Of a stretch of 55,636 nucleotides of DNA, positions 4,316-55,636 are shown in pieces. The stretch lies in the IMG/VR virus record IMGVR_UViG_3300029705_000156; one strand, written 5' to 3'. The position numbers and the translations under genes were made by a program. The notes beneath the pieces were generated by a model. It did no database searches and was not told the origin of the DNA. It saw only the letters and a program-made list of their open reading frames with translations. The stretch comes from a virus. The first letter of the stretch is position 1. Each line of letters opens with the position of its first letter.

Positions 4316-4387
4316 AGCCCCTTCGTCAAGCGGTAAGACGCAAGATTTTGATTCTTGTATACATTGGTTCGAATCCAATAGGGGCTG
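4316..4387 (+). tRNA. tRNA-Gln (anticodon TTG)
   Basis: Hand-folded cloverleaf. 7-bp acceptor agcccct/aggggct, D arm with GG, perfect 5-bp anticodon stem caaga/tcttg with loop TT-TTG-AT, and T arm attgg-TTCGAAT-ccaat. Confidence 0.85.
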
Positions 4388-4857: not shown

Positions 4858-4932
4858 GGGGGTGTAGTTTAAATCCGGCGAGAACGCTAGATTGAAGGGC
4901 TAGTAATGCAAGTTCAAATCTTGCCGCCCCTC
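4858..4932 (+). tRNA. tRNA, tentatively Phe (GAA), atypical
   Basis: Acceptor gggggtg/cgcccct (two G-U pairs), D stem gttt/gaac with GG in the loop, T arm gcaag-TTCAAAT-cttgc. The anticodon loop TT-GAA-GG has G37 and an A31-G39 mismatch. Confidence 0.55.
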
Positions 4933-10246: not shown

Positions 10247-10513
10247 ATGGCAGTAGTATTTGACGGACAAACTTATGAAAACGAGAGTGAAATTCCTGAT
10301 ATGGGAAGCATTCAGTGTGTAGAAGTTCGTGGAAATCAGAGAGATTATCAAGGATTTGTGCAGGACAGTCAAAAACTGCCGAAGTATGATGACCTTGCAA
10401 CGGGAAGTAGTGCGATATTGATTGACCCGAATGGAGTAGAAAGTACGATTATCGGAAAATATGACGCACCTACAAAACAGTGGTTGAATATGAAAGGCGG
10501 TGTAATCGTATGA
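10247..10513 (+). CDS. Hypothetical protein
   Basis: 88-aa track ORF with RBS GAGGTG. Confidence 0.5.
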   Translation: MAVVFDGQTYENESEIPDMGSIQCVEVRGNQRDYQGFVQDSQKLPKYDDLATGSSAILIDPNGVESTIIGKYDAPTKQWLNMKGGVIV

Positions 10514-12936
10514 GTTTAAAAGGTGAAGAGGCTTTAATACTTGGGATGGACTACACCGAAGAATCATTGTTGGGTGCAGGAGCCTTAAAAGGTCAAGACG
10601 GACAAGATGGTGTATCGCCTATTATTTCCGTAAACACAAGTACAGCAGATACATACAAACTTGACATTACGGACAAAAACGGAACGATTACCACACCAAA
10701 TCTTGTTGGAAAACAAGGGGAGCGTGGAGAAGTTGGCGAAACCGGAGCAGACGGAGAAACACCGACAATTACCGAGAACGCAGATAATACCGAAGAAGTT
10801 TATAAATTAGACTTTACTACAAAGAATGGTACATTTACCACAAAGAATATTAAGGGAAAGCAAGGACTCGAAGGAGTTAGCCCGACAGTTACTACTAACC
10901 CCGATAACACAACGGAAGATTACCGACTTAACATTACAACCAAGGGCGGTAGTTTTACAACTCCTAATCTTAAAGGTCCGCAGGGTGAGCGCGGTCCTAT
11001 TGGTGAAAGTGCCGTAAGTGCAATTAACCCAAGAGGAGATTATGATGTAAACGCAGAACCTAGTTACACAAAGAGCGATTACATTACATATACAGACGGA
11101 AATACTTATGTTTGTAAACTTGATAACCCTACAAACGAGCCACCGATTGACGGAACAGTAACAGATACTTATTGGCAAGTAATAGCATTTAGGGGTGCAC
11201 AAGGTATCGCAGGTAGAGATGGCGAGAAAGGTGCAGACGGAGTAACCTTTACACCGAGTATTGATGCAAACGGAGTATTGTCGTTTACAAACAATGGTGG
11301 TTTGGAAAATCCCGAACCTATTGATATTAAGGGCGATAACGGTGTGACATTTACACCTAGCATAGATGCAGAAGGATATTTGAGTTTTACCAACAATGGC
11401 AATCTTGAAAATCCCGAACCGATTAAGGTATTAGGACAAGATGGTGCAGACGGTAAAGACGGAATAGATGGTACAACATACATACCTAGCATTGGCACAG
11501 TAACAACAGTTGAAAGTAATGCCGATGCAAGTGCAGGAGTAACAGTTGACGAAGAAACCAAAGAAGCGGTATTCCATTTTGAAATTCCAAAAGGAGAAGA
11601 TGGATTTAGCCCTATCGTTGAAACTGTTGAAAGTGAAAACGGACACACAGTAAACATTGCAGATGTTGAGGGTGTGAAATCGTTTGAAGTGCTTAACGGC
11701 AAAGACGGAGTACAGATTGATGATGAAACTGCAAGCACCGACACAGTTTGGAGCAGTCAGAAAACGAGTGACGAGTTAGCGAAGAAATTAACAAAAAATT
11801 ACGCATCACTTACGGATGCAAATATTGTTATGGATAGTGGAAATGGTTTCCATATATATCGTGTTGGGTATGGTTGTTTAAATACACCAGTAAATCGTAT
11901 TGGTATAATTATTAGTAACAACTATTATGATAATGCACAATATATACGAATTACACAAACTTATATGACCAATGATGATGACACAGCAAATGGTTTAACC
12001 TATATGCGTTACGGAATGTCTAATAATAATGGAAGTACTTATACATGGAGTGATTGGAGACAGATTGGTTGTTTAAACGACACCAAATCTTCAGCAACAA
12101 GCACGTACTCATCATCTAAGATTGATGAGAAATATGGTGCATACACATTCGGTACAGCAGGTGCTACACAGTGGCTTAAATTGACATTAGGTAATTCTTC
12201 AAAATTCCAACCTATTGTAATTTCAGACCAATATGGAGGAAAAGTTGAGATTACTGGTATGGCTGATGATGGAACATACAAATCTGTTAAATTGGTTAGA
12301 TATAGTTATGGTGATTGGACTACATATAGTGCGACAGATTATACTGTGCATGATGGAGTTGACCCTAATTATAAGATTCAACGCTTTTATTATTATCCTA
12401 CTGATGGTTATTATTATCTTGAAATTAGACAGTGGACAACTCTTAAAGTCGAGGGAAATAGTACTGCGGAACTGGTTACAAGTTTACCTGCTGAAAAAAG
12501 TGAAATGACTTTAATTCCTGAGAGTAATTGGGGAAGCATCAACGATTCTTCAACTTCCACAACTTCAACTTGGAGCAGTAATAAGATTGCTCAACAGGAC
12601 GGAGTTAAACAAGTATTCTATGCTTCTTCAACATCATATCCATCAATATTTTGGGTTTTATCAGATGCAACAACTGGCGTATTCTGGTTTAAGCATACAT
12701 TATCCGATAGTTCTGGTGTAAAATCAGTTGAAGGATATGCTGATTTAACACATAATGTAGCAAGATTGATAAGTGGAAGCGGAAGTGATATAAATGTATC
12801 TATTGGAACAGATACAATATCTGGTAAAAAGGGTGTAAGATTAATTGTGGCTTGGGGAGATAGCTCAACTACAAGTTGTAAGATTACAGAGGCAAGACCT
12901 GTTACAGCTATTCCTACAGAAATTGTAACAAGATAG
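10510..12936 (+). CDS. Collagen-like repeat fibre protein
   Basis: Several short G-X-Y runs (GKQGERGEVGETGADGET, GPQGERGPIGES, GAQGIAGRDGEKGADG, GQDGADGKDGIDG) interleaved with tandem beta-type repeats. ATGA overlap start. Confidence 0.7.
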   Translation: MSLKGEEALILGMDYTEESLLGAGALKGQDGQDGVSPIISVNTSTADTYKLDITDKNGTITTPNLVGKQGERGEVGETGADGETPTITENADNTEEVYKLDFTTKNGTFTTKNIKGKQGLEGVSPTVTTNPDNTTEDYRLNITTKGGSFTTPNLKGPQGERGPIGESAVSAINPRGDYDVNAEPSYTKSDYITYTDGNTYVCKLDNPTNEPPIDGTVTDTYWQVIAFRGAQGIAGRDGEKGADGVTFTPSIDANGVLSFTNNGGLENPEPIDIKGDNGVTFTPSIDAEGYLSFTNNGNLENPEPIKVLGQDGADGKDGIDGTTYIPSIGTVTTVESNADASAGVTVDEETKEAVFHFEIPKGEDGFSPIVETVESENGHTVNIADVEGVKSFEVLNGKDGVQIDDETASTDTVWSSQKTSDELAKKLTKNYASLTDANIVMDSGNGFHIYRVGYGCLNTPVNRIGIIISNNYYDNAQYIRITQTYMTNDDDTANGLTYMRYGMSNNNGSTYTWSDWRQIGCLNDTKSSATSTYSSSKIDEKYGAYTFGTAGATQWLKLTLGNSSKFQPIVISDQYGGKVEITGMADDGTYKSVKLVRYSYGDWTTYSATDYTVHDGVDPNYKIQRFYYYPTDGYYYLEIRQWTTLKVEGNSTAELVTSLPAEKSEMTLIPESNWGSINDSSTSTTSTWSSNKIAQQDGVKQVFYASSTSYPSIFWVLSDATTGVFWFKHTLSDSSGVKSVEGYADLTHNVARLISGSGSDINVSIGTDTISGKKGVRLIVAWGDSSTTSCKITEARPVTAIPTEIVTR

Positions 12937-27906: not shown

Positions 27907-29211
27907 ATGGCAACTTATAATTCAAGTTTTAACAATCCTTATCCTAGCGGGTGGAAGAATACGCCCGAACAAACAACTCCTATTACGGCAGAAGCATTAC
28001 AAGCACATACAGATGCTTTGCAGGCTATTGATGATTATTTAACAGCCAACCCTATTCCAGAAAGCGGTGGCGGCGGCACAGGAACTACAAATTATAATGA
28101 TTTGTCAAACAAACCCAGTATAAACGGAATTGAATTAAACGGAAATAAAACTAGCGAGCAGTTAGGCATTTCCGGCGGAACAGATGATTACGAAGAACTT
28201 GATAACAAACCCAAAATAAATGGAGTTGAGTTAAGTGGGGATTTATCTGCGGAAGATTTAGGTTTAAGTGGCGGTAGCGGAAGTGGCACTATGAACTACG
28301 AAGAATTAACTAATCTTCCAACAATCGAAAATGTCGAACTAAAAGGCAATGTAACTCTTGCTGAATTAGGCACGAAAAAGCAAATTCGCATTTCTTGGGT
28401 TGATTTTCAAGCATTGCCCACAGAAGAAAGAGAAGATTTAAGCGTTGTTTACTTTATTTATGATTATCCAAATACAGAATACACTGCAAGCAATATTGTT
28501 TACGATGACAGTTTATCCAATATCGGTGCTACAAACGTGCAAGACGCTATTCAAACAGTCGCTAACATTGCAAAAGGAAGAAACCAAGCACACGTTTTTC
28601 AAACTACCGCAGATATGCAAGCGTGGTTGTCAAATGCGGATAACAAGGGGCTTTGGAGCAAAGGCGATAATATTTACATTGTAGAGCTTGATGTACCCGA
28701 TTGGTGGGTAGCAGAAGTATTGGAAGAGGCAGATTCCGAAACTGGATATTATTACAAGATTGCACAGCTTGAAACACAGAAAGTTGATTTAACTAATTAT
28801 CTTCCCTTGTCGGGCGGTACTATGACTGGTACTTTGAATACACAAGACTTGGTACCATATCAAGCTAACGCTGTAAGACTTGGTACAAACGAAAAACCTT
28901 TTTCAAGTGTTAGAACAAACATTTTAAACATTATGAAAAACCTTGCAACTTACATTACGATGAATGTTGTACAAGAAGGAACTGAAACCCAAGAAGGTAT
29001 AACACAAATAATTATTGGTAACTCAACTCCAACTGGTACAAATGGAAACGCTAGGGGCTCACTTGTTTTGTATAACAAAAATGGAAAATATGGTCGTATT
29101 TCTCCCAATAGTGACGCTTCATCAAGCAACATTGAATATAACTTACCTTCTAAAGGCGGTACATTACCCACAGTCACAGTAAGTGGCACAGAAGTAACCA
29201 TTAACTTATAG
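27907..29211 (+). CDS. Tail fibre / receptor-binding protein with three tandem 36-aa repeats
   Basis: Repeats YNDLSNKPSINGIELNGNKTSEQLGISGG / YEELDNKPKINGVELSGDLSAEDLGLSGG / YEELTNLPTIENVELKGNVTLAELG. Confidence 0.6.
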   Translation: MATYNSSFNNPYPSGWKNTPEQTTPITAEALQAHTDALQAIDDYLTANPIPESGGGGTGTTNYNDLSNKPSINGIELNGNKTSEQLGISGGTDDYEELDNKPKINGVELSGDLSAEDLGLSGGSGSGTMNYEELTNLPTIENVELKGNVTLAELGTKKQIRISWVDFQALPTEEREDLSVVYFIYDYPNTEYTASNIVYDDSLSNIGATNVQDAIQTVANIAKGRNQAHVFQTTADMQAWLSNADNKGLWSKGDNIYIVELDVPDWWVAEVLEEADSETGYYYKIAQLETQKVDLTNYLPLSGGTMTGTLNTQDLVPYQANAVRLGTNEKPFSSVRTNILNIMKNLATYITMNVVQEGTETQEGITQIIIGNSTPTGTNGNARGSLVLYNKNGKYGRISPNSDASSSNIEYNLPSKGGTLPTVTVSGTEVTINL

Positions 29212-29797: not shown

Positions 29798-30685
29798 ATG
29801 ATTACAATTAACACAGGCGCAGGACACGCAGCACAAGGCAATAAATACCACGGAGCAGTAGGATTAATTGACGAAAGCAAAGAAGCAAGAGAAGTATTAA
29901 GTAGGGTAAATAGAATTTTGCTTGAAAATGGCATCATAATTAACGATTGCACCATAGATAGCGGTGTAAGTAAGCGTGATATCATTGACAAATCAGTAAA
30001 GTTGCATATTGAGGGCGCAGAATATGATGTTTCTATTCATTTTAATTCTTTTTCTTTAAAGTCGGCAAATGGTACAGAGGTTCTTATTTATTCTGATAAG
30101 GCAAGAGTATTAGCGCAGAATATTGCAGATGAAATCGGAAAACTTGGCTATGTAAAGCGTGGTGGAGGTGTAAAAATCCGCAAAGACTTACGATATTTAA
30201 AAACTTCGCCCAATCCCGCCGTATTGATTGAATGTTGCTTTGTAACAAACGCAAACGATGTTAAGAGGTACAATGCTGATACTATGGCTAAAGCTATCGC
30301 AAACGGCATTTTAAAGACAGTTGCAAAGCAGATGGTAGAAATTAAGCCTACTGTTACAAACAACACTACAAAGCCGAATAACAGCGTTACAAAAAGCAAA
30401 TTTATTGACGGCGGACTTGATTATGCTTTGGTGTTCAATCCGACATATTACTTGAACAAGCACGCGGATCTAAAAAATTCCGTATTTGCAGAAAGCGACA
30501 AGAAATTGTTTGAGCATTTTATTAAGTATGGTATGATTGAGGGCAGACAAGCAAGTTCAAACTTTAATGTAAAAGCATATCGTGATAATTATGCTGATTT
30601 GCGTAAAGCATTCGGGGATAATTTGCCTAAGTATTACCGCCATTATATCGAATTTGGCTACACAGAAAAGCGAAAAGCATTATAA
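29798..30685 (+). CDS. Endolysin, N-acetylmuramoyl-L-alanine amidase (Amidase_3-like) with C-terminal repeat domain
   Basis: N-terminal INTGAGHAAQG...E...SIHFNS pattern. C-terminal duplicated Y..N..DL...F......HY...G..EGR-like motif. Confidence 0.7.
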   Translation: MITINTGAGHAAQGNKYHGAVGLIDESKEAREVLSRVNRILLENGIIINDCTIDSGVSKRDIIDKSVKLHIEGAEYDVSIHFNSFSLKSANGTEVLIYSDKARVLAQNIADEIGKLGYVKRGGGVKIRKDLRYLKTSPNPAVLIECCFVTNANDVKRYNADTMAKAIANGILKTVAKQMVEIKPTVTNNTTKPNNSVTKSKFIDGGLDYALVFNPTYYLNKHADLKNSVFAESDKKLFEHFIKYGMIEGRQASSNFNVKAYRDNYADLRKAFGDNLPKYYRHYIEFGYTEKRKAL

Positions 30686-30999: not shown

Positions 31000-31128
31000 A
31001 TGGAAGAATTAAAAGAAAAAGAGTATTACAGACAGGCTATTGTTGATATTATTATGAAAATCGACAGATTAGATGTACTTATGTACTTAAACAGATTGAT
31101 TTCACGCATAGTAAAAGAGGGGCGATAA
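31000..31128 (+). CDS. Small hypothetical protein (42 aa)
   Basis: ATG after AAAAGGAG. Ends in the bidirectional terminator. Confidence 0.35.
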   Translation: MEELKEKEYYRQAIVDIIMKIDRLDVLMYLNRLISRIVKEGR

Positions 31129-31146
31129 AACCCCTCTTATTTTTAT
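31116..31146. terminator. Bidirectional intrinsic terminator
   Basis: 7-bp stem agagggg/cccctct with T-runs on both strands, between convergent genes. Confidence 0.65.
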
Positions 31147-32035: not shown

Positions 32036-32383
32036 TCACTTTCCTAATCTGTCAATCATTTTCATTATATCTTTTCTGTCATCTTCTGACAGTTTAGATA
32101 ACTTAATTGCGTATTCTTTGATTTCTTTGCTTAAAAAGATAACATCTGCATCTAAATCAGCACTTTCTATTATCTCTTTTGGTTCTTCCCATCCCATTAA
32201 ACTTCCGGGTGTTACCCCAAAGCATTTTGCTAAAGATAAAATTCTATCGTAAGGAATTGTAGATATTTCGCCACTTTCATATCTCTTAATAGTCTGCTTT
32301 GTTGTTCCTGTTCTCTTACCTACTTCTTCTAAAGTAAGATTCTGTTCTTCTCTTAATCTTCTTATATTTTCGTGAATACCCAT
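32036..32383 (-). CDS. CI-like repressor (XRE-family HTH)
   Basis: IRRLREEQNLTLEEVGKRTGTTKQTIKRYESG. RBS AAGGAG. Divergent from a Cro-like gene. Confidence 0.8.
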   Translation of the reverse strand: MGIHENIRRLREEQNLTLEEVGKRTGTTKQTIKRYESGEISTIPYDRILSLAKCFGVTPGSLMGWEEPKEIIESADLDADVIFLSKEIKEYAIKLSKLSEDDRKDIMKMIDRLGK

Positions 32384-32422
32384 ATTTTCAACTCCTTTCC
32401 TATATTTTAGTGCCGTGAAACC

Positions 32423-32450
32423 ATTATAACACAAATAACGCAAAATGCAA
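32423..32450 (-). promoter_or_regulatory. Repressor-maintenance-type promoter
   Basis: The minus strand reads TTGCAT-N16-TATAAT with TGT immediately upstream of the -10 (near extended -10). Confidence 0.5.
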
Positions 32451-32472: not shown

Positions 32473-32501
32473 TTGACACGTTACAAATGGTGTGCTATAT
32501 T
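32473..32501 (+). promoter_or_regulatory. Early rightward promoter
   Basis: TTGACA-N17-TATATT with an extended -10 TG. Confidence 0.6.
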
Positions 32502-33211: not shown

Positions 33212-33466
33212 ATGAAGAAATTTAAAGTAAATGTAGCACAGATTATATGCGGAATTGGATTTGGCATAGTTATGATTGGCGGTTGCGGTTTGGACAGTAT
33301 GGATATGACTAAGCCTGTTGTTCTTTGTTTAATCGGACTATGTTTAATGATTATTTCCGCACCATTTATGGCAAAGGAGAGTAATAGTGAAAAAAATGAT
33401 TTTACTTATAACGGTAGCGATTATTCTAGCAATTATCCCTACGATAAGACTTTCCGCCGGAGATAG
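33212..33466 (+). CDS. Membrane protein
   Basis: Two TM segments. Its last 80 nt overlap the next gene. Confidence 0.4.
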   Translation: MKKFKVNVAQIICGIGFGIVMIGGCGLDSMDMTKPVVLCLIGLCLMIISAPFMAKESNSEKNDFTYNGSDYSSNYPYDKTFRRR

Positions 33467-33872
33467 AGAATGTATTTTGTCAGAAGAAGTTCAAGGCTAT
33501 TGTGAAGAAATTGGCGAGATGTATGGTATATGCCCGGAATTGCTTATGGCGATTATCGAAGCAGAATCCAGCGGCAATCAGTATGCGGAAAACGGAAGTT
33601 GCAAAGGTTTAATGCAAGTATCTGTAAAATGGCACGCTGACAGAATGGAAAAGTTGGGAGTTGTAGATATATACGACGAATATAGCAATATTTTAGTTGC
33701 CACAGATTATTTAGCAGAGTTGCGAGATGATTACGGAGAAGTAAGTTATGTTTTGGACATTTACAACGGAAACTCCAAGGCATACTACAACTACGAAAAC
33801 GGAATTTTATCCAAATATGCCGGAAGTGTCCTCGAAAGAAGTGCAGAGCTAGAAAGAATAAGGGGGAAGTAA
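33387..33872 (+). CDS. Secreted lytic transglycosylase (SLT domain)
   Basis: Signal/TM MKKMILLITVAIILAII, followed by AIIEAESSGNQYAENGSCKGLMQV. Confidence 0.7.
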   Translation: MKKMILLITVAIILAIIPTIRLSAGDRECILSEEVQGYCEEIGEMYGICPELLMAIIEAESSGNQYAENGSCKGLMQVSVKWHADRMEKLGVVDIYDEYSNILVATDYLAELRDDYGEVSYVLDIYNGNSKAYYNYENGILSKYAGSVLERSAELERIRGK

Positions 33873-34015: not shown

Positions 34016-34354
34016 GTGAGAAGGCGAATTAGACAAGCGTTGTTTGATTTAGGAATACCTTTTAATTTAAGAGGTTTTGCATATTTAGAAGAAGCGTTGT
34101 TGCGCATTATTGAAGTTGATGAAAAGTCGCTTACCCAGGTTTGTATAGATATCGAAGAAAAAATCTTTGTGTCTTATCAATGCGTTCATAGTGCGATTGG
34201 CACAGCTGTCAAGAAAATGAACAGAAATAGCGATGCATGGAAGCGATATGTCAATGTAGACACAAAAAGCACTGCGGAAATTGTATATGCAATAGCTTTT
34301 AACATTATGAAGGAGATTGAAGATGAACAAGATATATCTGCAAGGGATAGTTAG
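34016..34354 (+). CDS. Spo0A C-terminal (DNA-binding) domain-like protein, no receiver domain
   Basis: IRQALFDLGIPFNLRGFAYLEEALLRII aligns with the Spo0A segment [21 protein letters not shown]. GTG start after AAGGAG. Confidence 0.6.
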   Translation: MRRRIRQALFDLGIPFNLRGFAYLEEALLRIIEVDEKSLTQVCIDIEEKIFVSYQCVHSAIGTAVKKMNRNSDAWKRYVNVDTKSTAEIVYAIAFNIMKEIEDEQDISARDS

Positions 34355-34913
34355 CGAGTTAGAGTTTAGCCACGAATATAAGGGCGAGAAGTTTTATTCA
34401 TTCTTATTATCCACAAACAGATTAAGCGGATATACGGACAAGTTACCTTGCATCGTGCCAGAAGTCAATCTGTCTTATATATACGAAGACCAAATAGTTG
34501 GCATATGTGGCGAAGTACGGACAAGAAATGTAGAAGTAGACGGCAAACGGCATTTAGAAATCTATGTTTTTGTCAAGGACACTGGCAGCTGCGGAGAAGA
34601 TGATGAGAACTTTGTACTTTTGAATGGTTCTATCTGCAAACAGCCGATTTTGCGAGAAACACCGCTTGGCAGAACGATTTGTGACGTGTTTTTAGCCGTA
34701 AACAGACCGACAGGGCAAAGCGACTACATACCTTGTATTTTTTGGGGCAGAAACGCTTTACGAGTGGCAGAAATGGAAGTAGGAAAGGAAATTAGTATTA
34801 CTGGCAGATTGCAGAGTAGGGAATATGTTAAGCAAAACCTTTTCGGCGAGTGCGAAACAAAGACCGCTTATGAATTGTCGGTAGTGGAATTGAAAGGGGT
34901 GGAAGAGTCTTGA
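34323..34913 (+). CDS. Tandem OB-fold SSB-like protein (no acidic tail)
   Basis: Two SSB-like halves (MNKIYLQGIVSE... and NFVLLNGSICKQPILRETPLG...ITGRLQSREY). Confidence 0.5.
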   Translation: MNKIYLQGIVSELEFSHEYKGEKFYSFLLSTNRLSGYTDKLPCIVPEVNLSYIYEDQIVGICGEVRTRNVEVDGKRHLEIYVFVKDTGSCGEDDENFVLLNGSICKQPILRETPLGRTICDVFLAVNRPTGQSDYIPCIFWGRNALRVAEMEVGKEISITGRLQSREYVKQNLFGECETKTAYELSVVELKGVEES

Positions 34914-35494: not shown

Positions 35495-35695
35495 TTGATT
35501 AAGGTAAGAAAAGGCAAGGTTGATATAAAAGGAAACGAATGCGAGTTGATTGCGGAATTTATGTGCTTAATGTGCAGTATCGCAGTTTCCGTAATTATAC
35601 CAACTCACGGAAAAGAAAATTTGAAAACAGAGTTATACAAAATTGTAGATGAAGTTTGCGATGCAGTTTTAGAAAGCGAGGAAGAAAATGAGTAA
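35495..35695 (+). CDS. Hypothetical protein
   Basis: 66-aa track ORF with a TTG start. Confidence 0.4.
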   Translation: MIKVRKGKVDIKGNECELIAEFMCLMCSIAVSVIIPTHGKENLKTELYKIVDEVCDAVLESEEENE

Positions 35696-36284
35696 AGAAA
35701 TTGAGTTATTAAAAGAAGCAATTAAGATTCTTGAGGAAAGAGAAAAATCAAGCAAGGTTCAGTTATCAACATTGAATCCGGGCGAAACATTTAAGGTTGG
35801 AGAACACGATTTTATTATATTGAAGCAGGATGAAGAGGTAACACACGTTATTTCCAAAGATTTTATGGCAGAAAGTATCAAGTTTGATGAAGATACAAGA
35901 GATTACAAAAAATCAAATCTCAAAAAGGTAATTGAGCGTGACATTCAGCCTTTAATCGAAAAAGAAGTTGGAGCAGACAACATTATTGAACACGAAGTTG
36001 ATTTAACTTCTGTCGATATGCAGAATGAATTTGGAAAATGTAAATGCAAGGTGCGGCCCATTACTTTTGATGAAGCAAGAGAATTTAACAATTTAATTGT
36101 AGATGAAAATTTGGATGATTGGTGGTGGACTTGCACTCCTTGGTCGACAGAAAAACGAGGTTATAAATATTCAATAGCCGTTGTTCGCCCTTCAGGCGGC
36201 ATCGGCCGCGATAGCTGCTACTATGGTGTTCGCCCTTTCTGTATCTTAAAATCTAATATCTTTGTATCGAAAGGAGAAAAATAA
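35688..36284 (+). CDS. DGR variable protein 1 (coiled coil plus C-type-lectin/DUF6273-like domain)
   Basis: The C-terminal AVVRPSGGIGRDSCYYGVRPFC is encoded by VR1. Confidence 0.8.
   Translation: MSKEIELLKEAIKILEEREKSSKVQLSTLNPGETFKVGEHDFIILKQDEEVTHVISKDFMAESIKFDEDTRDYKKSNLKKVIERDIQPLIEKEVGADNIIEHEVDLTSVDMQNEFGKCKCKVRPITFDEAREFNNLIVDENLDDWWWTCTPWSTEKRGYKYSIAVVRPSGGIGRDSCYYGVRPFCILKSNIFVSKGEK
36178..36236 (+). repeat. DGR variable repeat VR1 (6 nt shorter than TR)
   Basis: Colinear with TR 37296-37360 apart from one 6-nt gap. Confidence 0.8.
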
Positions 36285-36285
36285 T

Positions 36286-36894
36286 ATGTCAAAACCATTA
36301 ACTATGAAAGATTTGCAGAATCAGATTAACGAATTGAAAGCGGAGTTATCAGAGATTAAAAAAGAAAAAATTCCCACTATTAAAAAGAAGTTTGAAATTG
36401 GAGATACTTTTGAACTTGCCGGACTTAACTGGAAAATCCTTGATGTTACAGAAAAAGGATATGTGTGTTTGGCTGATAAGTTAGAAGATGAATCAAAATT
36501 TGACAGCGATTCCAACGATTGGAAAGAGAGTTCTTTGAGAAGTTATCTCAACGGAGAGTTTTTGGAAACCTTATGCGAAGAAATAGGAAAAGAAAACATC
36601 TTATCTTTTGAAAGAGATTTACTATCTCTTGACGGTTTGGACGAATATGGAAAATGCGAAGATTACGTATCGGTACTTAATGTTGATGAATACAGAAAGT
36701 ACCGCAAGCACATTTTGAAAACTGATTATTATTGGTGGTTATTGACTGCCGATAGTGTTAAAAGCAATGTCGATAATCGTTGGGTTTCCGTTGTTCACCC
36801 TTCGGGCCTCATCGGCCGCAATGTTTGCTACGACTACGATGGTGTTCGCCCGGTTTGTATCTTTTCTTCTTCAATCTTTGAATTAGAGGGATAG
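36286..36894 (+). CDS. DGR variable protein 2 (paralogue of target 1)
   Basis: WKESSLRSYLNGEF and YWWLLT motifs. The C-terminal SVVHPSGLIGRNVCYDYDGVRPVC is encoded by VR2. Confidence 0.85.
   Translation: MSKPLTMKDLQNQINELKAELSEIKKEKIPTIKKKFEIGDTFELAGLNWKILDVTEKGYVCLADKLEDESKFDSDSNDWKESSLRSYLNGEFLETLCEEIGKENILSFERDLLSLDGLDEYGKCEDYVSVLNVDEYRKYRKHILKTDYYWWLLTADSVKSNVDNRWVSVVHPSGLIGRNVCYDYDGVRPVCIFSSSIFELEG
36788..36852 (+). repeat. DGR variable repeat VR2
   Basis: 65 nt, ungapped against TR, with 14 mismatches all at TR adenines. Confidence 0.9.
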
Positions 36895-36898
36895 ATAA

Positions 36899-37270
36899 AT
36901 GGCAGAAACGGAACTGAAAGTAATTTTAAAAGCCAAAGAATTAGCCAAACACACATTGATTTTAACGTCAAATTGTAACAGATACCCTAAAAAGTGGAGA
37001 TTCTCACTTGTTGATAAGATGCAGAATAAAGCATTGGAAATATATGAGTATTTGCACGAAGCAAACAGAACGGATTTGAAAGATTATGCAAGAGAGCGTT
37101 TTGAGTTGCAGACCAAAGCAATAACGATGTGCGACCAACTTTTGTACTACATAGAACTGTCTTATCAGTTGAATATTATAAATATTAAAAGCACAGAGTA
37201 TTGGTCGAAAATGGTATCTGATGTAAAGCATATGGCTATTGCTTGGAGAAGTACGGATAAGAAAAGATAG
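36899..37270 (+). CDS. avd: DGR accessory variability determinant (Avd, four-helix bundle)
   Basis: 123 aa, basic and helical. YPKKWRFSLVDKMQNKALEIYEYLHEAN pattern. Sits between target and TR. Confidence 0.75.
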   Translation: MAETELKVILKAKELAKHTLILTSNCNRYPKKWRFSLVDKMQNKALEIYEYLHEANRTDLKDYARERFELQTKAITMCDQLLYYIELSYQLNIINIKSTEYWSKMVSDVKHMAIAWRSTDKKR

Positions 37271-37295
37271 CTTTATTAGGTTTTGCGTTGTTAAA

Positions 37296-37360
37296 CCGTT
37301 GTTCACCCTTCAGGCAACATCAACAACAATAATTGCAACAACAACAATGGTGTTCGCCCA
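37296..37360 (+). repeat. DGR template repeat (TR)
   Basis: Noncoding and AAC/AAT-rich. In the VR frame it reads VVHPSGNINNNNCNNNNGVRP. Confidence 0.9.
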
Positions 37361-37470
37361 TTCTGGATTATTCAGACAGCAAGAGTAGGCATTAAGCCGA
37401 AATCAGAAAACAAAGATACAGAAAAACGCAAGACCTTCCGCAATGCGGTAAACATAAAGGAACGCAAGTT

Positions 37471-38502
37471 ATGGATGTCAAGAATATTGTTACTGATTAT
37501 GAAAATTTGTATAGGGCTTATAAAAAAGCAAAGCGCAATAAACCATTTAATGGAAGTTGTGCGAGATTTCAAAATATGAGCCTTGAAGGACTGCATCTAT
37601 TAAAAGAACAACTTGAAAATCAAACATACAAAATGAGTAATTATAACGAGTTCAAAATTTACGAGCCAAAAGAAAGAGTGATTAAATCGTGTTCTTTTAA
37701 AGATAAGGTTGTACAACACGTATTTAGTGACAATATTCTGCATCCGCAACTTGAAAACGAATTTATTAAATGCAATTATGCCGGACAAGTCGATAAAGGA
37801 ACGCATTTTGGAATGGATTGCTTGAAAGAGCATATGTTGAATTTTTATGAAATGCACGGCACCGACGGTTGGATATTAAAGTGTGATATTACGAAGTTTT
37901 TCTATCAGATAGACCATGACATTTTGAAAGATATTGTGGATTACCATTTCAATGATGAATACATAACGTGGCTTAATCATCTATTTATTGACAGCACGGA
38001 TGGTTTAGGGCTTCCATTAGGGAATCAGGTAGCACAGATATACGCATTACTTATGTTGAATGGGCTAGATCACTTCATAACCGGCGAACTTGGAATACAG
38101 TTTTACGGAAGATATATGGATGATTTTTATTTGATACACCACGATAAGAAGTATTTGCAATGGTGCCTTGAATGTATAACGGAATTTGTGAATAGCACTG
38201 GTTTAGCACTTAATGGAAAAACGCAGATATGTCCTTTTAAGAACGGTATTAAATTTCTTGGATTTCATCATTATGTGACGAAAGACGGAAAGTACATACG
38301 GAAAATAAGTGGAGATAACAAGCGTAAAATCCGCAAAAAACTGAAACGGTGGTCTGTGTTGGTTAAAAACGGAACTATGACCGAGAATAAGTTTTACGAG
38401 AAATACAATGCTTGGAAAAATCACGCATCACACGGTAATTGCATTAAATTATGTCACAGTATGGATTTATATGTAAAAGAATTATTGGAGAGTGAAAATT
38501 GA
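37471..38502 (+). CDS. DGR reverse transcriptase
   Basis: RT motifs ILKCDITKFFYQIDH, GLPLGNQVAQ (DGR-type motif 4), YGRYMDDFYLI, IKFLGF. Confidence 0.9.
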   Translation: MDVKNIVTDYENLYRAYKKAKRNKPFNGSCARFQNMSLEGLHLLKEQLENQTYKMSNYNEFKIYEPKERVIKSCSFKDKVVQHVFSDNILHPQLENEFIKCNYAGQVDKGTHFGMDCLKEHMLNFYEMHGTDGWILKCDITKFFYQIDHDILKDIVDYHFNDEYITWLNHLFIDSTDGLGLPLGNQVAQIYALLMLNGLDHFITGELGIQFYGRYMDDFYLIHHDKKYLQWCLECITEFVNSTGLALNGKTQICPFKNGIKFLGFHHYVTKDGKYIRKISGDNKRKIRKKLKRWSVLVKNGTMTENKFYEKYNAWKNHASHGNCIKLCHSMDLYVKELLESEN

Positions 38503-39311
38503 ATAAAGGAATAAAAATAAGTAACAAGGAATACCGGGAACGAGATGGTGTTAGCAGTACAGACTTAAAGCATATGGTTAAATCCCCTGCACATTTCCGC
38601 TATTGGAAAGATAATCCGCAAGAAGATACACCGGCATTGCTTTTTGGCAGAGCAGTACATAAGTATGTATTAGAAAAAGATGATTTCTTTACAGAATTTG
38701 CAGTAGCACCGAATGTTGACCGAAGAACCAAGGCAGGCAAGGAAGAATGGGCTTTATTTGAGGTTGATAATCAAGGCAAGGACATTATAACTGCTGATGA
38801 TTTTGAGAAGATTAAGGCTATGTATGATGCGTTATACAGTACACCCTATGTTGCTAAGTTGCTGAGCGGAAAAAGGGAATTGTCGTTCTTCATGGAAGAT
38901 GAAAGCACAGGCGTGACAATGAAGTGTAGACCAGACTGTTTAACAGACATAGGAGATACGCATATTCTGATTGATTACAAATCGTGTGCAGATGCTACAA
39001 GCGAACAGTTTATGAAAGATGCTATTAAGCTGATGTATGATATGCAACTTGCATACTACAAAAACATTTTAGATAAGCGTCGTGGTTGTGAACATACAGT
39101 TATCTTTATAGCACAAGAGAAAGCTGCACCATATTTGGCAAATGTACTTGAAGCGAATGAGTATTTTATCAAAAGTGGCAGGGATATGTACCGAACTTAC
39201 CTTGATATGTACGCAGAATGTGAGAAGTCGGGTAATTGGTACGGATTAGTAAATGGTGTTATTAACACATTAGGGTTGCCGAATTGGTTACAGAAACAGT
39301 ATGAAGTTTAA
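38499..39311 (+). CDS. PD-(D/E)XK exonuclease (RecE-C/DUF3799-like)
   Basis: FGRAVHKYVLE, ILIDYKS and QLAYYKN motifs. Upstream of the annealase gene. Confidence 0.65.
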   Translation: MNKGIKISNKEYRERDGVSSTDLKHMVKSPAHFRYWKDNPQEDTPALLFGRAVHKYVLEKDDFFTEFAVAPNVDRRTKAGKEEWALFEVDNQGKDIITADDFEKIKAMYDALYSTPYVAKLLSGKRELSFFMEDESTGVTMKCRPDCLTDIGDTHILIDYKSCADATSEQFMKDAIKLMYDMQLAYYKNILDKRRGCEHTVIFIAQEKAAPYLANVLEANEYFIKSGRDMYRTYLDMYAECEKSGNWYGLVNGVINTLGLPNWLQKQYEV

Positions 39312-39329
39312 GAAAGCGAGGAATAAAAA

Positions 39330-40184
39330 ATGGCAGAAAATGAAGTAATGGAATATCAAGGAAGTGTACCGAGTTATGCAGGTAATTTTGACAAAATCAA
39401 TCAAGGAACAGTAGCGGTAGAAAGTAGTAGAGCTATTGCAGAAGCACAAGGAAAACTCATTATGGCTAAGAGATTTCCGAGAAGTTATACCGAAGCATAC
39501 GCAAAGGCTATCGAAGCGTGTCAGCGTAAGAGTTTTGCGGAAAAAGCATTTTTTGCATATCCAAGAGCCGGACAGACTGTAACTGGTGTGACTATCAGAT
39601 TCGCTGAAGAAATGGCACGCTGCTATGGAAACCTCGACTATGGAATTAAGGAAATGAGCCACGAAGAGGGAAAATCCGAGATGCAGGCTTATTGTTGGGA
39701 TTTGGAAACTAACACTATTTCAAGTCAGAATTTTACAGTTGAACACGTTATGGAAACAAAGCAGGGCAACCGTAAATTAACAAGTCAGCGTGATATTTAT
39801 GAGCGTACTGCTAATGACGGATCAAGAAGATTGAGAAGTCGTATTTTGGCAATTTTGCCTCCGGATTTAGTTGAAGATTGCATAAATGAATGCAAGAAAA
39901 CACTTGCCGGAAAGAATGACATTCCTTTGATTGACAAGGTTAAAAATATGGTAACTGGGTTTGCAAAGTTAGGTGTTACCAAAGAAATGTTGGAAACGAG
40001 ATTAAAGCACACCATTGAAACCGTAAATGCTGATGAATTAACAGAGTATATCGGTATCTACAACGGATTAAAACAGAAAGAAACCACTATTTCGGATTGG
40101 TTTGAGCAACCTAAAACTGCATCACAGTTGACGGAGTTGTTAGAGCAGGAAGAAAAGGGCAAGAAGAAAGGTGCTGATAAGTAA
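39330..40184 (+). CDS. Single-strand annealing recombinase (RecT/Red-beta-type)
   Basis: Paired with the exonuclease. IRFAEEMARCYGNLDYG and WDLETN motifs. The exact family was not resolved. Confidence 0.55.
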   Translation: MAENEVMEYQGSVPSYAGNFDKINQGTVAVESSRAIAEAQGKLIMAKRFPRSYTEAYAKAIEACQRKSFAEKAFFAYPRAGQTVTGVTIRFAEEMARCYGNLDYGIKEMSHEEGKSEMQAYCWDLETNTISSQNFTVEHVMETKQGNRKLTSQRDIYERTANDGSRRLRSRILAILPPDLVEDCINECKKTLAGKNDIPLIDKVKNMVTGFAKLGVTKEMLETRLKHTIETVNADELTEYIGIYNGLKQKETTISDWFEQPKTASQLTELLEQEEKGKKKGADK

Positions 40185-40642
40185 TGAAATATAAAGTGGT
40201 TATTAGCAACTCAAAACATACATTTCCACTCAAGGGGTTAAATGAACTCCTTGGGGGGAGAGTATACAACTTCCGTACAAAGAAGTATCACAATTCCGTA
40301 AAGTCAGAGAATGACAAGGTATGCAGACTTGCAATTCAGAAGTATATGCGTGGTGTGAAGATTGATAAGCCGATTAGGTGTACTTATATGATTTATGCAG
40401 GAGATAAACGGCACGACAGAGGAAACCTTGCTTGTGCGGTTGAGAAGTCCTTTTTAGATGCTTTGCAGGAAATGAAAGTTATTAAAAATGACGGATTTGA
40501 CGATGTTTTAGATTCGGTATTTCACACAGAACTATGCAGAGAGAACCCAAGAATAGAAGTAATTATAGAAGAAGTTTCCCAAAAGGCATTAGAGAAATTC
40601 AACGGACTTTTGGAGATTGAGGAAGGAGATGAATATAAATGA
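40184..40642 (+). CDS. RusA-like Holliday junction resolvase
   Basis: RHDRGNLACAVEKSFLDALQEMKVIKNDGFDDV resembles the RusA D-x-D-N...K...D-A-L...D-D pattern. Confidence 0.45.
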   Translation: MKYKVVISNSKHTFPLKGLNELLGGRVYNFRTKKYHNSVKSENDKVCRLAIQKYMRGVKIDKPIRCTYMIYAGDKRHDRGNLACAVEKSFLDALQEMKVIKNDGFDDVLDSVFHTELCRENPRIEVIIEEVSQKALEKFNGLLEIEEGDEYK

Positions 40643-44256: not shown

Positions 44257-44654
44257 TCGGACGCAGTACAAAAGACGCAGATGTGCGTTATTCACAAGGA
44301 GAAAAGACAATGACGATTGCGAGAATCAGCCTTGCAGTTGATAGAAAGTTTAAGCAGGAAGGACAACCTACCGCAGATTTCATTAACTGTATCGCATTTG
44401 GGAAAACCGCAGAAGTCATTGAAAAGTATGTCGTAAAGGGTACAAAAATCGCAGTTGTAGGACATATTCAGACTGGCAGTTATACCAACAAAGACGGACA
44501 GAAAGTTTACACAACAGATGTTGTGATTGATGAACTGGAATTTTGCGAAAGCAGAAGTAGTCAGCAGAGCAATAGTCAGCCTGCACCTGCACCGAATGGA
44601 GATGACTTTATGTCGATACCCGAGGGCATTATAGAAGAGTTGCCTTTCACCTGA
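44238..44654 (+). CDS. ssb: Single-stranded DNA-binding protein (start codon anomalous)
   Basis: OB-fold core and acidic tail EELPFT. The conserved N-terminus NKTTLIGRSTKDADVRY is encoded upstream of the first GTG (44283). ATT at 44238 lies 8 nt after AGGTGG. Confidence 0.7.
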   Translation: MNKTTLIGRSTKDADVRYSQGEKTMTIARISLAVDRKFKQEGQPTADFINCIAFGKTAEVIEKYVVKGTKIAVVGHIQTGSYTNKDGQKVYTTDVVIDELEFCESRSSQQSNSQPAPAPNGDDFMSIPEGIIEELPFT

Positions 44655-50358: not shown

Positions 50359-50583
50359 ATGTGGAGATTGGGTAAGTATTTATCATCTTTGACAAAGCCG
50401 GAACTTGAGGAATTAAAAGACCAACTTAATTTAACAGACGATGAAATGATGGTATTTGAGCAGTTATCTAGGGGCAGAAGTAATATTCTTGTCGCTGATA
50501 ATTGCCAAATATCAATCAGGACAGTTGATAACAAAATCAAATCAATAAACATAAAATTAGGGCGGTTAAAAAATAATGGATAG
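50359..50583 (+). CDS. Small sigma-region-4/LuxR-type HTH protein
   Basis: LTDDEMMVFEQLSRGRSNILVADNCQISIRTVDNKIKSI. Confidence 0.5.
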   Translation: MWRLGKYLSSLTKPELEELKDQLNLTDDEMMVFEQLSRGRSNILVADNCQISIRTVDNKIKSINIKLGRLKNNG

Positions 50584-51799
50584 TTTATCTAACAAAGAAT
50601 TATTGAATTTTGCGATTGAAAATGGTATTATCGACATTAACACCATTCAAAAGCAAATTGAGATGAACGAACGAAAGAAATATCTTGATATGCACATTTA
50701 TTCAGTGTTTAAGGGTGCAGACGGAAATTATCATACATCTGTGCCTGATGACACAAAGAAAAACAACAGGAGGGCTATTAAGCGAAAAACAAAAGAATCT
50801 ATTGAGGATGCAATTATTGAATATTACAAAAGTGTTGAAAATGAGCCTAGATTAAAAGATTTGTTCAGACTGTGGATTGATAAGAAGTTGAAGTATTGCG
50901 AAATTGAAAAGCAGACCGCTGACCGATACGAAACTGATTTTATAAGATTTTTCTCAAATAACAATCTGTATAACAGGAAGGTAAGGTATATTACAGAAAA
51001 CGATCTTGAGGATTTTATAAAAACAACCATAGCCGAAAAACAGTTGACAGCTAAAGGTTGGGGTAATTTGCGGACTTTGATAAACGGTATGTTTAAGTTT
51101 GCAAAGAAACAAGGTTACACGCAAATAAGCATAACTCACTTTATGGGCGATTTGGATTTGTCAAAAAAGGCTTTTAAGAGAAGAGTTTTTGCGAGTGAAG
51201 AATCTGTATTTACTGACCGAGAGATAAATCTTATTATGGGATTCATTGATAATGCAGAGCCGTCTCTTATAAATCTTGGTGTTGTATTGGCTTTTCAAGC
51301 AGGATTAAGAGTTGGTGAATTATCAGCATTAAAGTATAGCGACCTTAACGGAAATGTTCTTACGGTAAACAAAACAGAAATTAGATACAAGGGCGAAGAC
51401 AACAGTTATGTTTTTGAAGTAAGAGATTACACAAAGGGAGATATAGGACACAGAAAAGTCATTCTCACAGATTTGGGAGTACAGTCAATTAAAAAAGCAA
51501 AGATGTTAAACCCTTGGGGCGAATATCTGTTTATGGAAAACGGAAACAGAATTAAAGCCAAGGCATTTACAGTAAAAATTGAAAAAATTTGCAAATATGT
51601 TGGTATAGAACCACGCTCGCTCCATAAAGTCAGAAAAACTTACGGCACCAAACTTCTTAATGCCGGGTTAAGCGAAAAAGTAATTGAAAGCCAAATGGGT
51701 CATACCGACATAAATACCACAAAAGGATTCTATTGGTTTAACAATTTGGAAGAAGAAGAGGTTAAAAAAATGGTTTCCAATGCTTTAAATTATCGTTAA
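50576..51799 (+). CDS. int: Tyrosine integrase
   Basis: 407 aa with an N-terminal SAM-like domain. Catalytic GLRVGE, HKVRKTYGT, MGHTDINTTKGFY. The attP lies immediately downstream. Confidence 0.85.
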   Translation: MDSLSNKELLNFAIENGIIDINTIQKQIEMNERKKYLDMHIYSVFKGADGNYHTSVPDDTKKNNRRAIKRKTKESIEDAIIEYYKSVENEPRLKDLFRLWIDKKLKYCEIEKQTADRYETDFIRFFSNNNLYNRKVRYITENDLEDFIKTTIAEKQLTAKGWGNLRTLINGMFKFAKKQGYTQISITHFMGDLDLSKKAFKRRVFASEESVFTDREINLIMGFIDNAEPSLINLGVVLAFQAGLRVGELSALKYSDLNGNVLTVNKTEIRYKGEDNSYVFEVRDYTKGDIGHRKVILTDLGVQSIKKAKMLNPWGEYLFMENGNRIKAKAFTVKIEKICKYVGIEPRSLHKVRKTYGTKLLNAGLSEKVIESQMGHTDINTTKGFYWFNNLEEEEVKKMVSNALNYR

Positions 51800-55190: not shown

Positions 55191-55517
55191 ATGACATTTA
55201 CAGTAAATAACCAAGAATGGGAATTAGTGTTAGTAAATCCGAATAGTAAAGAACTTATGAGAAGTAATGGCAGTATAACAATCGGAATGACAGATAATAA
55301 CCAAAAGAAAGTGTTTATAAATAATAGGCTAAATGATTATCTTTTTGATAAATGTTTGGCTCACGAACTATGCCACGTTTACGCTTTTTCTTTTGATTAT
55401 TTTATGGATATTGAAACCGAAGAGATTGTTGCGGACTTCTTCAGTTTGTTTGGTAGAAGTATGGTTTATATGCTTGATGATTTGGTTGGCATATTGAAAA
55501 AAGCCTACATTGCGTAG
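55191..55517 (+). CDS. Small zincin metallopeptidase, ImmA/IrrE (M78)-like, paralogue of 3393-3743
   Basis: ITIGMTDNNQKKVFINNRL...CLAHELCHVYAF (HExxH). The stop lies inside a GCCTAC/GTAGGC hairpin. Confidence 0.55.
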   Translation: MTFTVNNQEWELVLVNPNSKELMRSNGSITIGMTDNNQKKVFINNRLNDYLFDKCLAHELCHVYAFSFDYFMDIETEEIVADFFSLFGRSMVYMLDDLVGILKKAYIA

Positions 55518-55636
55518 GCTAATTTCTATTTTTCTGTGTTTTCTTTGTGAATATATGCTATCGGATGAAAAATACAGTTTTCTATCATTTTTGCATCTTC
55601 AATAGCCTCTTTTTCCGTATCCCACTCTTTTCTGTA
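55510..55636. repeat. Terminal overlap copy 2 (identical to 1-127)
   Basis: Same as copy 1. Confidence 0.9.

Follow-up and report, generated by a model that had tools for sequence, protein, structure and literature searches.

What does a diversity-generating retroelement (DGR) diversify when it lies outside the tail module of a phage? To our knowledge, bacteria and phages have no other known natural means of targeted protein hypermutation than DGRs, and nearly all functional knowledge of them that we are aware of comes from a single tail-fibre target. The question is raised by a viral DNA of 55,636 nucleotides (IMG/VR record IMGVR_UViG_3300029705_000156; this whole stretch is called the window below), in which positions 35688-38502 carry two small tandem paralogous genes (T1 and T2), the gene of an accessory protein (Avd), a non-coding template repeat (TR) and the gene of a reverse transcriptase (RT), all set among early replication and recombination genes. 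A first-pass annotation, made from the sequence alone, had proposed a complete DGR at this place, and the proposal is borne out: each open reading frame (ORF) and position that it named exists, and RT, Avd, TR and two variable repeats (VRs) are present. That the region is a DGR of canonical architecture (target-target-avd-TR-RT), operating by the DGR mechanism, is close to certain. The best explanation as a whole, a complete DGR that diversifies T1 and T2 as binding proteins, is given a probability of roughly 0.85.

Repeats, reverse transcriptase and accessory protein

The cassette consists of the following features.

35688-36284, + strand: target gene T1, 198 aa, short N-terminal helix and DUF6273 lectin-like domain
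36178-36236, + strand: VR1, at the 3' end of T1, 59 nt
36225-36248, + strand: 3' boundary of VR1, equivalent to that of VR2
36286-36894, + strand: target gene T2, 202 aa, N-terminal helix (residues 7-26) and DUF6273 domain, preceded by a good ribosome-binding site
36788-36852, + strand: VR2, at the 3' end of T2
36841-36864, + strand: 3' boundary of VR2, the common G+C-rich GGTGTTCGCCC followed by the VR-specific GGTTTGTATCTTT
36899-37270, + strand: accessory protein Avd, 123 aa
37296-37360, + strand: TR, non-coding, AAY-rich, 65 nt (possible start at 37293)
37361-37470, + strand: TR-RT spacer, 110 nt, conserved and non-coding, taken as the 3' part of the DGR RNA
37471-38502, + strand: DGR reverse transcriptase, 343 aa

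The TR has adenine at 22 of its 65 positions; in the frame of the VRs it contains nine AAY codons together with ATC and CAC and translates as VVHPSGNINNNNCNNNNGVRP. VR2 aligns to it without gaps and, exactly as first annotated, differs from it at 14 positions (TR 37312, 37316, 37317, 37322, 37323, 37325, 37326, 37331, 37332, 37337, 37340, 37343, 37346 and 37360), every one of which is an adenine in the TR. Eight of these changes are A to G, four A to T and two A to C. The hypergeometric probability that all 14 mismatches would fall on adenines by chance, given 22 adenines among 65 positions, is 5.2e-9. VR2 is also altered at all three adenines at 37293-37295, just 5' of the start given above for the TR, and the 5' edge of the TR and VR is therefore fuzzy.

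VR1 was absent from the first-pass description; it was found by a scan of the whole window and terminates T1, the upstream paralogue of T2. It is 6 nt, or two codons, shorter than the TR. When the gap is placed over TR 37331-37336, all 14 mismatches fall at adenines, while a gap placed inside the AAC run leaves 13 mismatches, 12 of them at adenines and one a T to C change. No third TR-like copy and no third VR were found anywhere in the window, on either strand, when TR-adenine positions were ignored.

At their 3' ends the TR and both VRs share GGTGTTCGCCC, beyond which the TR continues as ATTCTGGATT (ending in TGGATT) and the VRs end in TGTATC. These differences are fixed in five genotypes of the phage species, described below, and in a more distant relative, L005. 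Directionality is thus marked by fixed TR-versus-VR differences just 3' of GGTGTTCGCCC, in the manner of the initiation of mutagenic homing (IMH) sequence of a VR and its TR counterpart, IMH*.

The RT carries the motifs ILKCDITKFF, GLPLGNQVAQ and RYMDDFYL and matches both RVT_1 (8.5e-16) and phrog_1423 (8.9e-104). Its best relative of solved structure is the Bordetella phage enzyme bRT (8ub7; 3.9e-34, 121.9 bits against 54); in this PDB comparison the values are 1.8e-13 for group II intron RTs and 1.7e-12 for retron RTs. A tblastn search with the RT found many matches in phages with known DGRs, among them nd12 (48% identity), nd4, FP_Brigit, FP_Toutatis, Lelie and Bordetella phages. The first-pass annotation had named a grouping with retron or group II enzymes as a finding that would overturn it; such an identity is ruled out by bRT as the best relative, far ahead of the others, and by similarity search the RT is assigned to the DGR clade.

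The short ORF upstream, annotated earlier as Avd-like, is indeed an Avd by its match to PHROG 3206 ('Avd protein of DGR'; 4.6e-21). Its scores against NCBIfam DivGenRetAVD (2e-10) and Pfam bAvd (0.0026) lie below the curated cut-offs, indicating a divergent member of the family. The spacer between TR and RT contains long blocks that stay identical in phages sharing no more than 47-80% identity in their cassette proteins. A hairpin at CCGCAATGCGG shows compensatory changes at three pairs, and the 3' end of the TR is predicted to pair with the conserved AGAGTAGGC. The conservation, the compensated hairpin and the predicted pairing fit a structured DGR RNA.

By analogy with the paradigm of Bordetella phage BPP-1, an RNA that extends over the TR and the conserved spacer would be reverse-transcribed by an RT-Avd complex, with misincorporation opposite template adenines during cDNA synthesis. 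The cDNA would then replace the last ~65 nt at the 3' end of T2 (VR2) and likewise of T1, its tandem paralogue (VR1). As estimated from sequence, about 6e11 stop-free protein variants can be open to each target, all displayed on one face of a DUF6273, C-type-lectin-like domain.

Retrohoming as seen by comparison of strains

The identical Avd protein is encoded on at least 21 contigs, from which four sister genotypes were obtained, with ~92-95% nucleotide identity to the window in the cassette genes. In the five genotypes together, every VR1 and VR2 has 11-19 differences at adenines from the TR of its genome and none at any other base of the core; in the sister strains VR1 is full-length, with adenine-only differences in its core. 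Five sites of the TR are themselves polymorphic between strains, being non-adenine in some, and at each of them both VRs of a genome carry the same base as its TR (C[A/T/G]CCC, TTC[A/T/G]GG, GG[C/T], AA[T/C] and GT[T/G]CGC). This concerted evolution of TR and VRs cannot be explained by ordinary paralogy and indicates repeated, directional copying from TR to VR. Among 16 close homologues of T2, variation in the VR stretch (residues 168-190) falls nearly entirely at adenine-bearing codons, with C181, G174 and the sequence VRP invariant, and the adenine-restricted pattern is also seen in both VRs of the more distant L005.

Comparison of strains thus shows repeated transfer from the TR into both VRs within this phage species. 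The adenine-restricted heterogeneity of the VRs that the first-pass annotation had expected from an active element is found between strains. Chance and paralogy were both rejected as origins of the repeat similarity, on the adenine-only divergence (P = 5.2e-9) and the concerted evolution.

The 6-nt deletion in VR1 is unique to the window genotype, and since T1 is 200 aa long in all four sister strains the loss is derived. It was considered as an assembly error and rejected as such, the allele being present on 17 contigs from several assemblers and sources. Because the deletion is located within or next to the AAY repeats of the TR, while the mutated VR is non-repetitive, it points to slippage while the cDNA was made or integrated, and not to later decay; a slip within the AAY repeats in one homing event is the most likely origin. 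In several T2 homologues (P0016, P0040, P0076 and P0088; columns ~185-197 of alignment A1) the VR is one or two residues longer or shorter. Given such length variants elsewhere in the family, the VR1 indel need not mean decay.

The exact T1, T2 and RT proteins of the window occur on 17, 18 and 18 contigs, respectively, from at least three sample accessions; samples with this genotype include ENA ERZ27248351 and JGI 3300018493 and 3300023371. A megablast search of GenBank phages with the cassette gave no match, and scans of IMG/VR and the JGI metagenome collection with exact and IUPAC TR/VR patterns gave 0 matches; the latter reflects the coverage of the collections, as an index of exact proteins later yielded identical contigs.

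Targets in an early operon

Both tandem targets proved to be DUF6273/phrog_9958 proteins, the latter a family of unknown function. T2 matches Pfam DUF6273 (PF19789) at 7e-13 and 49.2 bits and phrog_9958 at 3.8e-45; T1 matches phrog_9958 at 3.1e-36 and reaches 23.4 bits against DUF6273, 0.1 under the cut-off of 23.5. More than 3,300 protein clusters match T2, those listed being ~200 aa long. The VR maps to the C-terminal end of the domain, up to positions 169-172 of the 172 in the DUF6273 profile, and the cysteines C61, C124, C181 and C191 are conserved. An AlphaFold2 (AF2) model of T2 (pLDDT 79) consists of a helix at residues 7-26 with a conserved heptad-like pattern, followed by one globular alpha/beta domain. 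In a Foldseek search the sole significant solved match of this model was 9qa6 (E 3.3e-6, TM 0.56 on the query), matches to classical C-type lectins being weak (E about 1); in a viral structure library phage DUF6273 proteins matched best, including some with an annotation as receptor-binding or fibre protein. The structure 9qa6 is that of the IgA peptidase of Thomasclavelia ramosa, whose N-terminal domain is a DUF6273 domain (PMC12402451). T2 shares this Pfam domain, but in the peptidase the domain is part of a secreted, wall-anchored protein of 137 kDa, is no DGR target and has no VR.

The location of the cassette is defined by these features of the window.

7.6-30.7 kb: structural and lysis module, with the last tail-module ORF ending at 29211 and the endolysin gene at 30685
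31115-31138: terminator-like site
32036-32443, - strand: divergent repressor gene
32473-32501, + strand: strongest sigma-70-like promoter candidate, 11 of 12 hexamer matches and an extended TG, by consensus match only
34317-34913, + strand: SSB gene, upstream of the cassette (Pfam SSB, 1.3e-16)
38499-39311, + strand: exonuclease VIII-like PD-(D/E)XK protein (DUF3799), directly after the RT
39330-40184, + strand: phrog_3657 protein, 284 aa, candidate annealase by position only
40184-40642, + strand: RusA
50576-51799: integrase

The promoter-like site faces the repressor gene and heads a rightward early operon in which genes for cro-like, winged helix-turn-helix, SLT, Spo0A_C-like and SSB proteins and four small ORFs precede T1; then follow T2, Avd, TR, RT, the exonuclease VIII-like gene, phrog_3657, RusA, methyltransferases, HNH and a second SSB gene. 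The genes of this run abut or overlap, the start of the exonuclease gene overlapping the RT stop codon by 4 nt, and no terminator-like site was found on the + strand from 32.5 to 44.5 kb. It can be inferred from this layout that the cassette is co-transcribed with the early replication and recombination genes. The first-pass annotation was right to place it there, with SSB upstream and exonuclease, RusA and methyltransferases downstream, and at about 6 kb from the nearest virion gene; T1 begins 6.5 kb past the last tail gene. Its 'annealase' label for the product of 39330-40184, in contrast, was purely positional: no Pfam, NCBIfam or PDB match was obtained for this protein, every homologue found has 80% identity or more, its AF2 model is poor (pLDDT 54), and the attempted identification as an annealase failed.

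The block T1-T2-Avd-TR-RT recurs in the early regions of L005, L015 and L017. More broadly, a tandem T1-T2 pair is present in ~22 of 30 genome loci, mostly of Lachnospiraceae, and in ~14 of them Avd and RT lie directly downstream; the hosts of the related prophages are Lachnospiraceae such as Lachnospira, Roseburia, Agathobacter and Dorea. In L005 the block follows RecT, a metallo-beta-lactamase (MBL) and a replisome organiser, and in L015 and L017 its upstream neighbours are SSB, AAA_23 and Tad4 and its downstream neighbours RecT and an MBL. The pair in L004 follows repressor, antirepressor and exonuclease genes. Targets outlive the retroelement: in L019 (5383-7924; the isolate Lachnospira intestinalis CLA-AA-H89B) T1, T2 and Avd are intact, the TR and RT are missing and RecT comes directly after Avd, and L022, L028 and L029 have the T1-T2 pair without Avd or RT. 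No cultured lysogen with a complete cassette turned up among the isolates examined.

The gene content around the cassette varies. In L010 and L011 (4604-6294), which have the identical Avd, RecT and then a DUF3799 exonuclease come directly after the RT, whereas in the window (38499-40184) the DUF3799 exonuclease is followed by the phrog_3657 protein, which points to modular swapping at the 3' border of the RT. A protein of the Tad4 (anti-Thoeris) family and the MBL are encoded near the cassette in relatives (L017 5248-5598 and 10232-10924; L015 10878-11609), and the neighbouring MBL has weak or faint matches to the anti-Pycsar Apyc1 family. Two separate SSB genes are present in the early region of the window (34317-34913 and 44283-44654, both on the + strand), a duplication that is also found in L015 and L017.

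Comparison with known systems shows which of these features are shared. The DGR of BPP-1 (mtd-avd-TR-brt) resembles the cassette in its target-avd-TR-RT order, in having the closest solved RT, in its Avd and adenine-only mismatches, in a VR at the C-terminus of a lectin-like domain and in an IMH/IMH*-like 3' difference between TR and VR. It differs in its single 381-aa trimeric target at the tail-fibre tip, as opposed to two small tandem targets that lack beta-prism and beta-sandwich domains and whose VRs lack a detectable 3' hairpin; moreover, the window cassette lies in an early/recombination operon rather than beside tail genes, and motif 4 of its RT is LGxxxAQ. A receptor-binding protein of the Mtd type has beta-prism and beta-sandwich N-terminal domains, trimerises, docks on the fibre and is encoded in the tail module, whereas the T2 model is one helix and one globular domain and the target genes begin 6.5 kb past the last tail gene. 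Similarly, tentaclins (Hoc-like DGR targets) are proteins of roughly 570 aa with an N-terminal DUF6273 domain followed by Ig-like/Fn3 domains; T1 and T2 have no Ig-like domain and so lack this architecture, and their phrog_10993 matches are weak and confined to the VR end.

Small DUF6273-only DGR targets with a C-terminal VR have been published, as tgt2 of phages nd4 and nd12, in Lelie/CP11 and as a core gene of Toutatisvirus (PMC10743442, PMC11792537, bioRxiv 10.1101/2024.10.15.618418). The gut phages nd4 and nd12 each combine a tentaclin with the small tgt2 target (Baykov et al. 2023, PMC10743442). Their tgt2 proteins are 34% identical to T2, DUF6273-only and with a C-terminal VR; nd12 has the closest RT among annotated phages (48%), and nd4_tgt2 is likewise encoded among replication genes. 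The RT of nd12, however, lies at the end of the structural module beside a 579-aa tentaclin, over 10 kb separate RT and small target in nd4, nd12, Lelie and Toutatis, and the window has neither a tentaclin nor a third VR, its whole cassette adjoining the two small targets. The Faecalibacterium phages Lelie/CP11 and Toutatisvirus also encode their small DUF6273 target early, among methyltransferase and replication genes, and keep it in some genomes that lack the DGR, as in L019. They differ in that their second target is a large Hoc-like protein, the RT and TR lie ~15-17 kb from the small target, and the hosts are Oscillospiraceae/Faecalibacterium rather than Lachnospiraceae. In Quimbyvirus a DGR target situated in a defence-related island, away from the structural module, was put forward as non-structural (Benler et al. 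2021, PMC8008677). That phage shares with the window a target outside the structural module but has an additional structural target, a frameshifted RT, Bacteroidetes hosts and another target family with other neighbours, while the early operon of the window holds both targets together with the RT. The placement that the first-pass annotation had called unusual is therefore real as regards the early/recombination operon and less unusual than it had supposed, as the small targets of nd4, Lelie and Toutatis are early too and Quimbyvirus offers a precedent.

A reading without any DGR, in which the RT would be a retron, group II or defence enzyme and the repeat similarity would reflect mere paralogy of T1, T2 and a pseudogene fragment, could appeal to the best NCBIfam match of the RT, a group II intron RT model (3.9e-32, far below its cut-off), and to the lack of any DGR-named RT model among its NCBIfam matches; set against the 121.9 bits for bRT versus 54, the presence of Avd, and an adenine-only divergence with concerted TR-VR evolution in five genotypes that is impossible by paralogy, it is effectively refuted. 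Other observations count against the explanation favoured here. The DGR activity seen is on an evolutionary scale only, between strains; the VRs of the window clone look frozen at consensus level, or else the samples are related. Motif 4 of the RT is LGNQVAQ in every strain of the species, with alanine for the usual serine of [LIV]GxxxSQ, and no significant hairpin or cruciform like that of BPP-1 was detected 3' of the VRs when DNA folds were compared with shuffles (z = -0.19 and -0.47), nor was a G+C-rich inverted repeat found there. The same LGNQVAQ is present in all strains that show VR turnover, L005 having LGNQTSQ, and a hairpin 3' of the VR is not universal among DGRs. It is unlikely, if conceivable, that the DGR of the window is a frozen relic whose parts are recognisable while homing has ceased and VR1 is decaying. 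VR1 and VR2 are identical on 17-18 contigs with an identical RT, L006 and L009 match the window at 100% identity across 6.4 kb, the VR1 deletion is confined to this genotype, relatives without TR and RT keep T1-T2-Avd, and reads of the related phage Lelie give no sign of DGR activity. Yet the ORFs, TR, spacer and YMDD motif are intact, the 5' and 3' TR homology of both VRs is preserved, the contigs may stem from related samples, consensus assemblies hide minority variants, and VR length varies elsewhere in the family.

We hold it at even odds that T1 and T2 are hypervariable lectin-like ligand binders acting outside the cell. They may be attached to the virion by way of their short N-terminal coiled-coil helices or set free at lysis, and would in this role be analogous to Mtd and tentaclins. 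Extracellular binding is favoured because every DUF6273 protein with a functional context is extracellular, the domain being found in virion adhesins and in the secreted, wall-anchored IgA protease. The earlier argument that proteins without a signal peptide or transmembrane segment may not be receptor-binding proteins carries no weight, as virion proteins, including Mtd, have none. Several findings speak against the extracellular role: wherever flanking genes could be recognised in the loci examined, the position is an early operon, none of the loci showed a homologue of a structural gene of the window within 6 kb of T1/T2-type genes, the 50 best PDB matches of the T2 model do not include Mtd, and the only possible anchor is a helix of ~20 aa per target protein. 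A possible, though rather improbable, alternative is that T1 and T2 are not adhesins but early-expressed hypervariable binders that are not part of the virion and act in or on the infected cell in conflicts of phage with host or phage with phage, for instance as blockers of variable defence proteins or in superinfection exclusion. The conservation of the early-operon location across diverse phages, genes that abut or overlap those of SSB, exonuclease, RecT and RusA, neighbours in relatives that include Tad4 and the weakly Apyc1-like MBL, the persistence of targets after loss of the RT, their minimal architecture and the Quimbyvirus proposal (PMC8008677) would all agree with it. Against such a conflict role, the DUF6273 proteins of known context (tentaclins/Hoc-like, receptor-binding-like and the secreted IgA protease) are all extracellular, gene position alone does not set the time or place of protein action, and a single TR in nd4, Toutatis and Lelie is the template for the small target as well as for a virion-surface tentaclin, suggesting that the two draw on a common ligand space. 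More far-reaching, and distinctly unlikely, is the proposal that the clade diversifies only non-virion proteins, with T1 and T2 as heteromeric, early, antibody-like binders, and that the conserved position of the cassette directly upstream of RecT or exonuclease genes is functional; T1 and T2 would then serve against host defences or rival phages, inside the cell or at its surface, and the single-strand annealing machinery of the phage would help to install the mutagenised cDNA into the VRs. No experimentally assigned function and no virion proteomics of small DUF6273 targets were found in the searched literature.

The phage genome and the significance of the cassette

The window carries an exact terminal overlap of 127 bp (1-127 = 55510-55636), indicating a circularly closed, complete assembly with a circular genome of 55,509 bp. 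The integrase and the divergent repressor point to a temperate lifestyle; the phage is a temperate phage of gut Lachnospiraceae, with related prophages residing in Lachnospiraceae genomes. An Rfam search of the whole window returned two tRNAs only, with no family for the TR-spacer RNA; the two genes (+ strand, 4316-4387 and 4858-4932) encode tRNA-Gln(TTG) and tRNA-Phe(GAA).

Three further genes are of note. The early gene at 34016-34354 (+ strand) encodes a 112-aa homologue of the C-terminal DNA-binding domain of Spo0A (Pfam Spo0A_C, 1.3e-6, above cut-off), through which the phage may interfere with host sporulation control. An SLT-like lytic transglycosylase with a hydrophobic N-terminus (33387-33872, + strand; identified by PHROG, and as PF01464 in sister loci) is encoded in the early region, away from the lysis module. 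Between the large terminase and portal genes, an odd place for a fibre-like gene, lies an ORF of 818 aa (10480-12936, + strand) with collagen-like glycine-rich repeats, a weak NCBIfam SclB-like match and a PHROG 'tail fiber' match over residues 75-254; it has neither a DUF6273 domain nor a VR.

The DGR type, its architecture and the target family are already known, and non-structural phage DGR targets were proposed in 2021 (PMC8008677). No description was found in the searched literature of a whole cassette in an early/recombination operon, with only two tandem small targets, that recurs in Lachnospiraceae prophages. The finding leaves the known DGR mechanism itself unchanged. The cassette provides a compact, recurrent test case for the role of DGR targets encoded outside the structural module, and equally for the question of whether cDNA integration is linked to phage recombination functions. 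If the annealing machinery does take part in homing, this would bear on the step of retrohoming that is still not understood.

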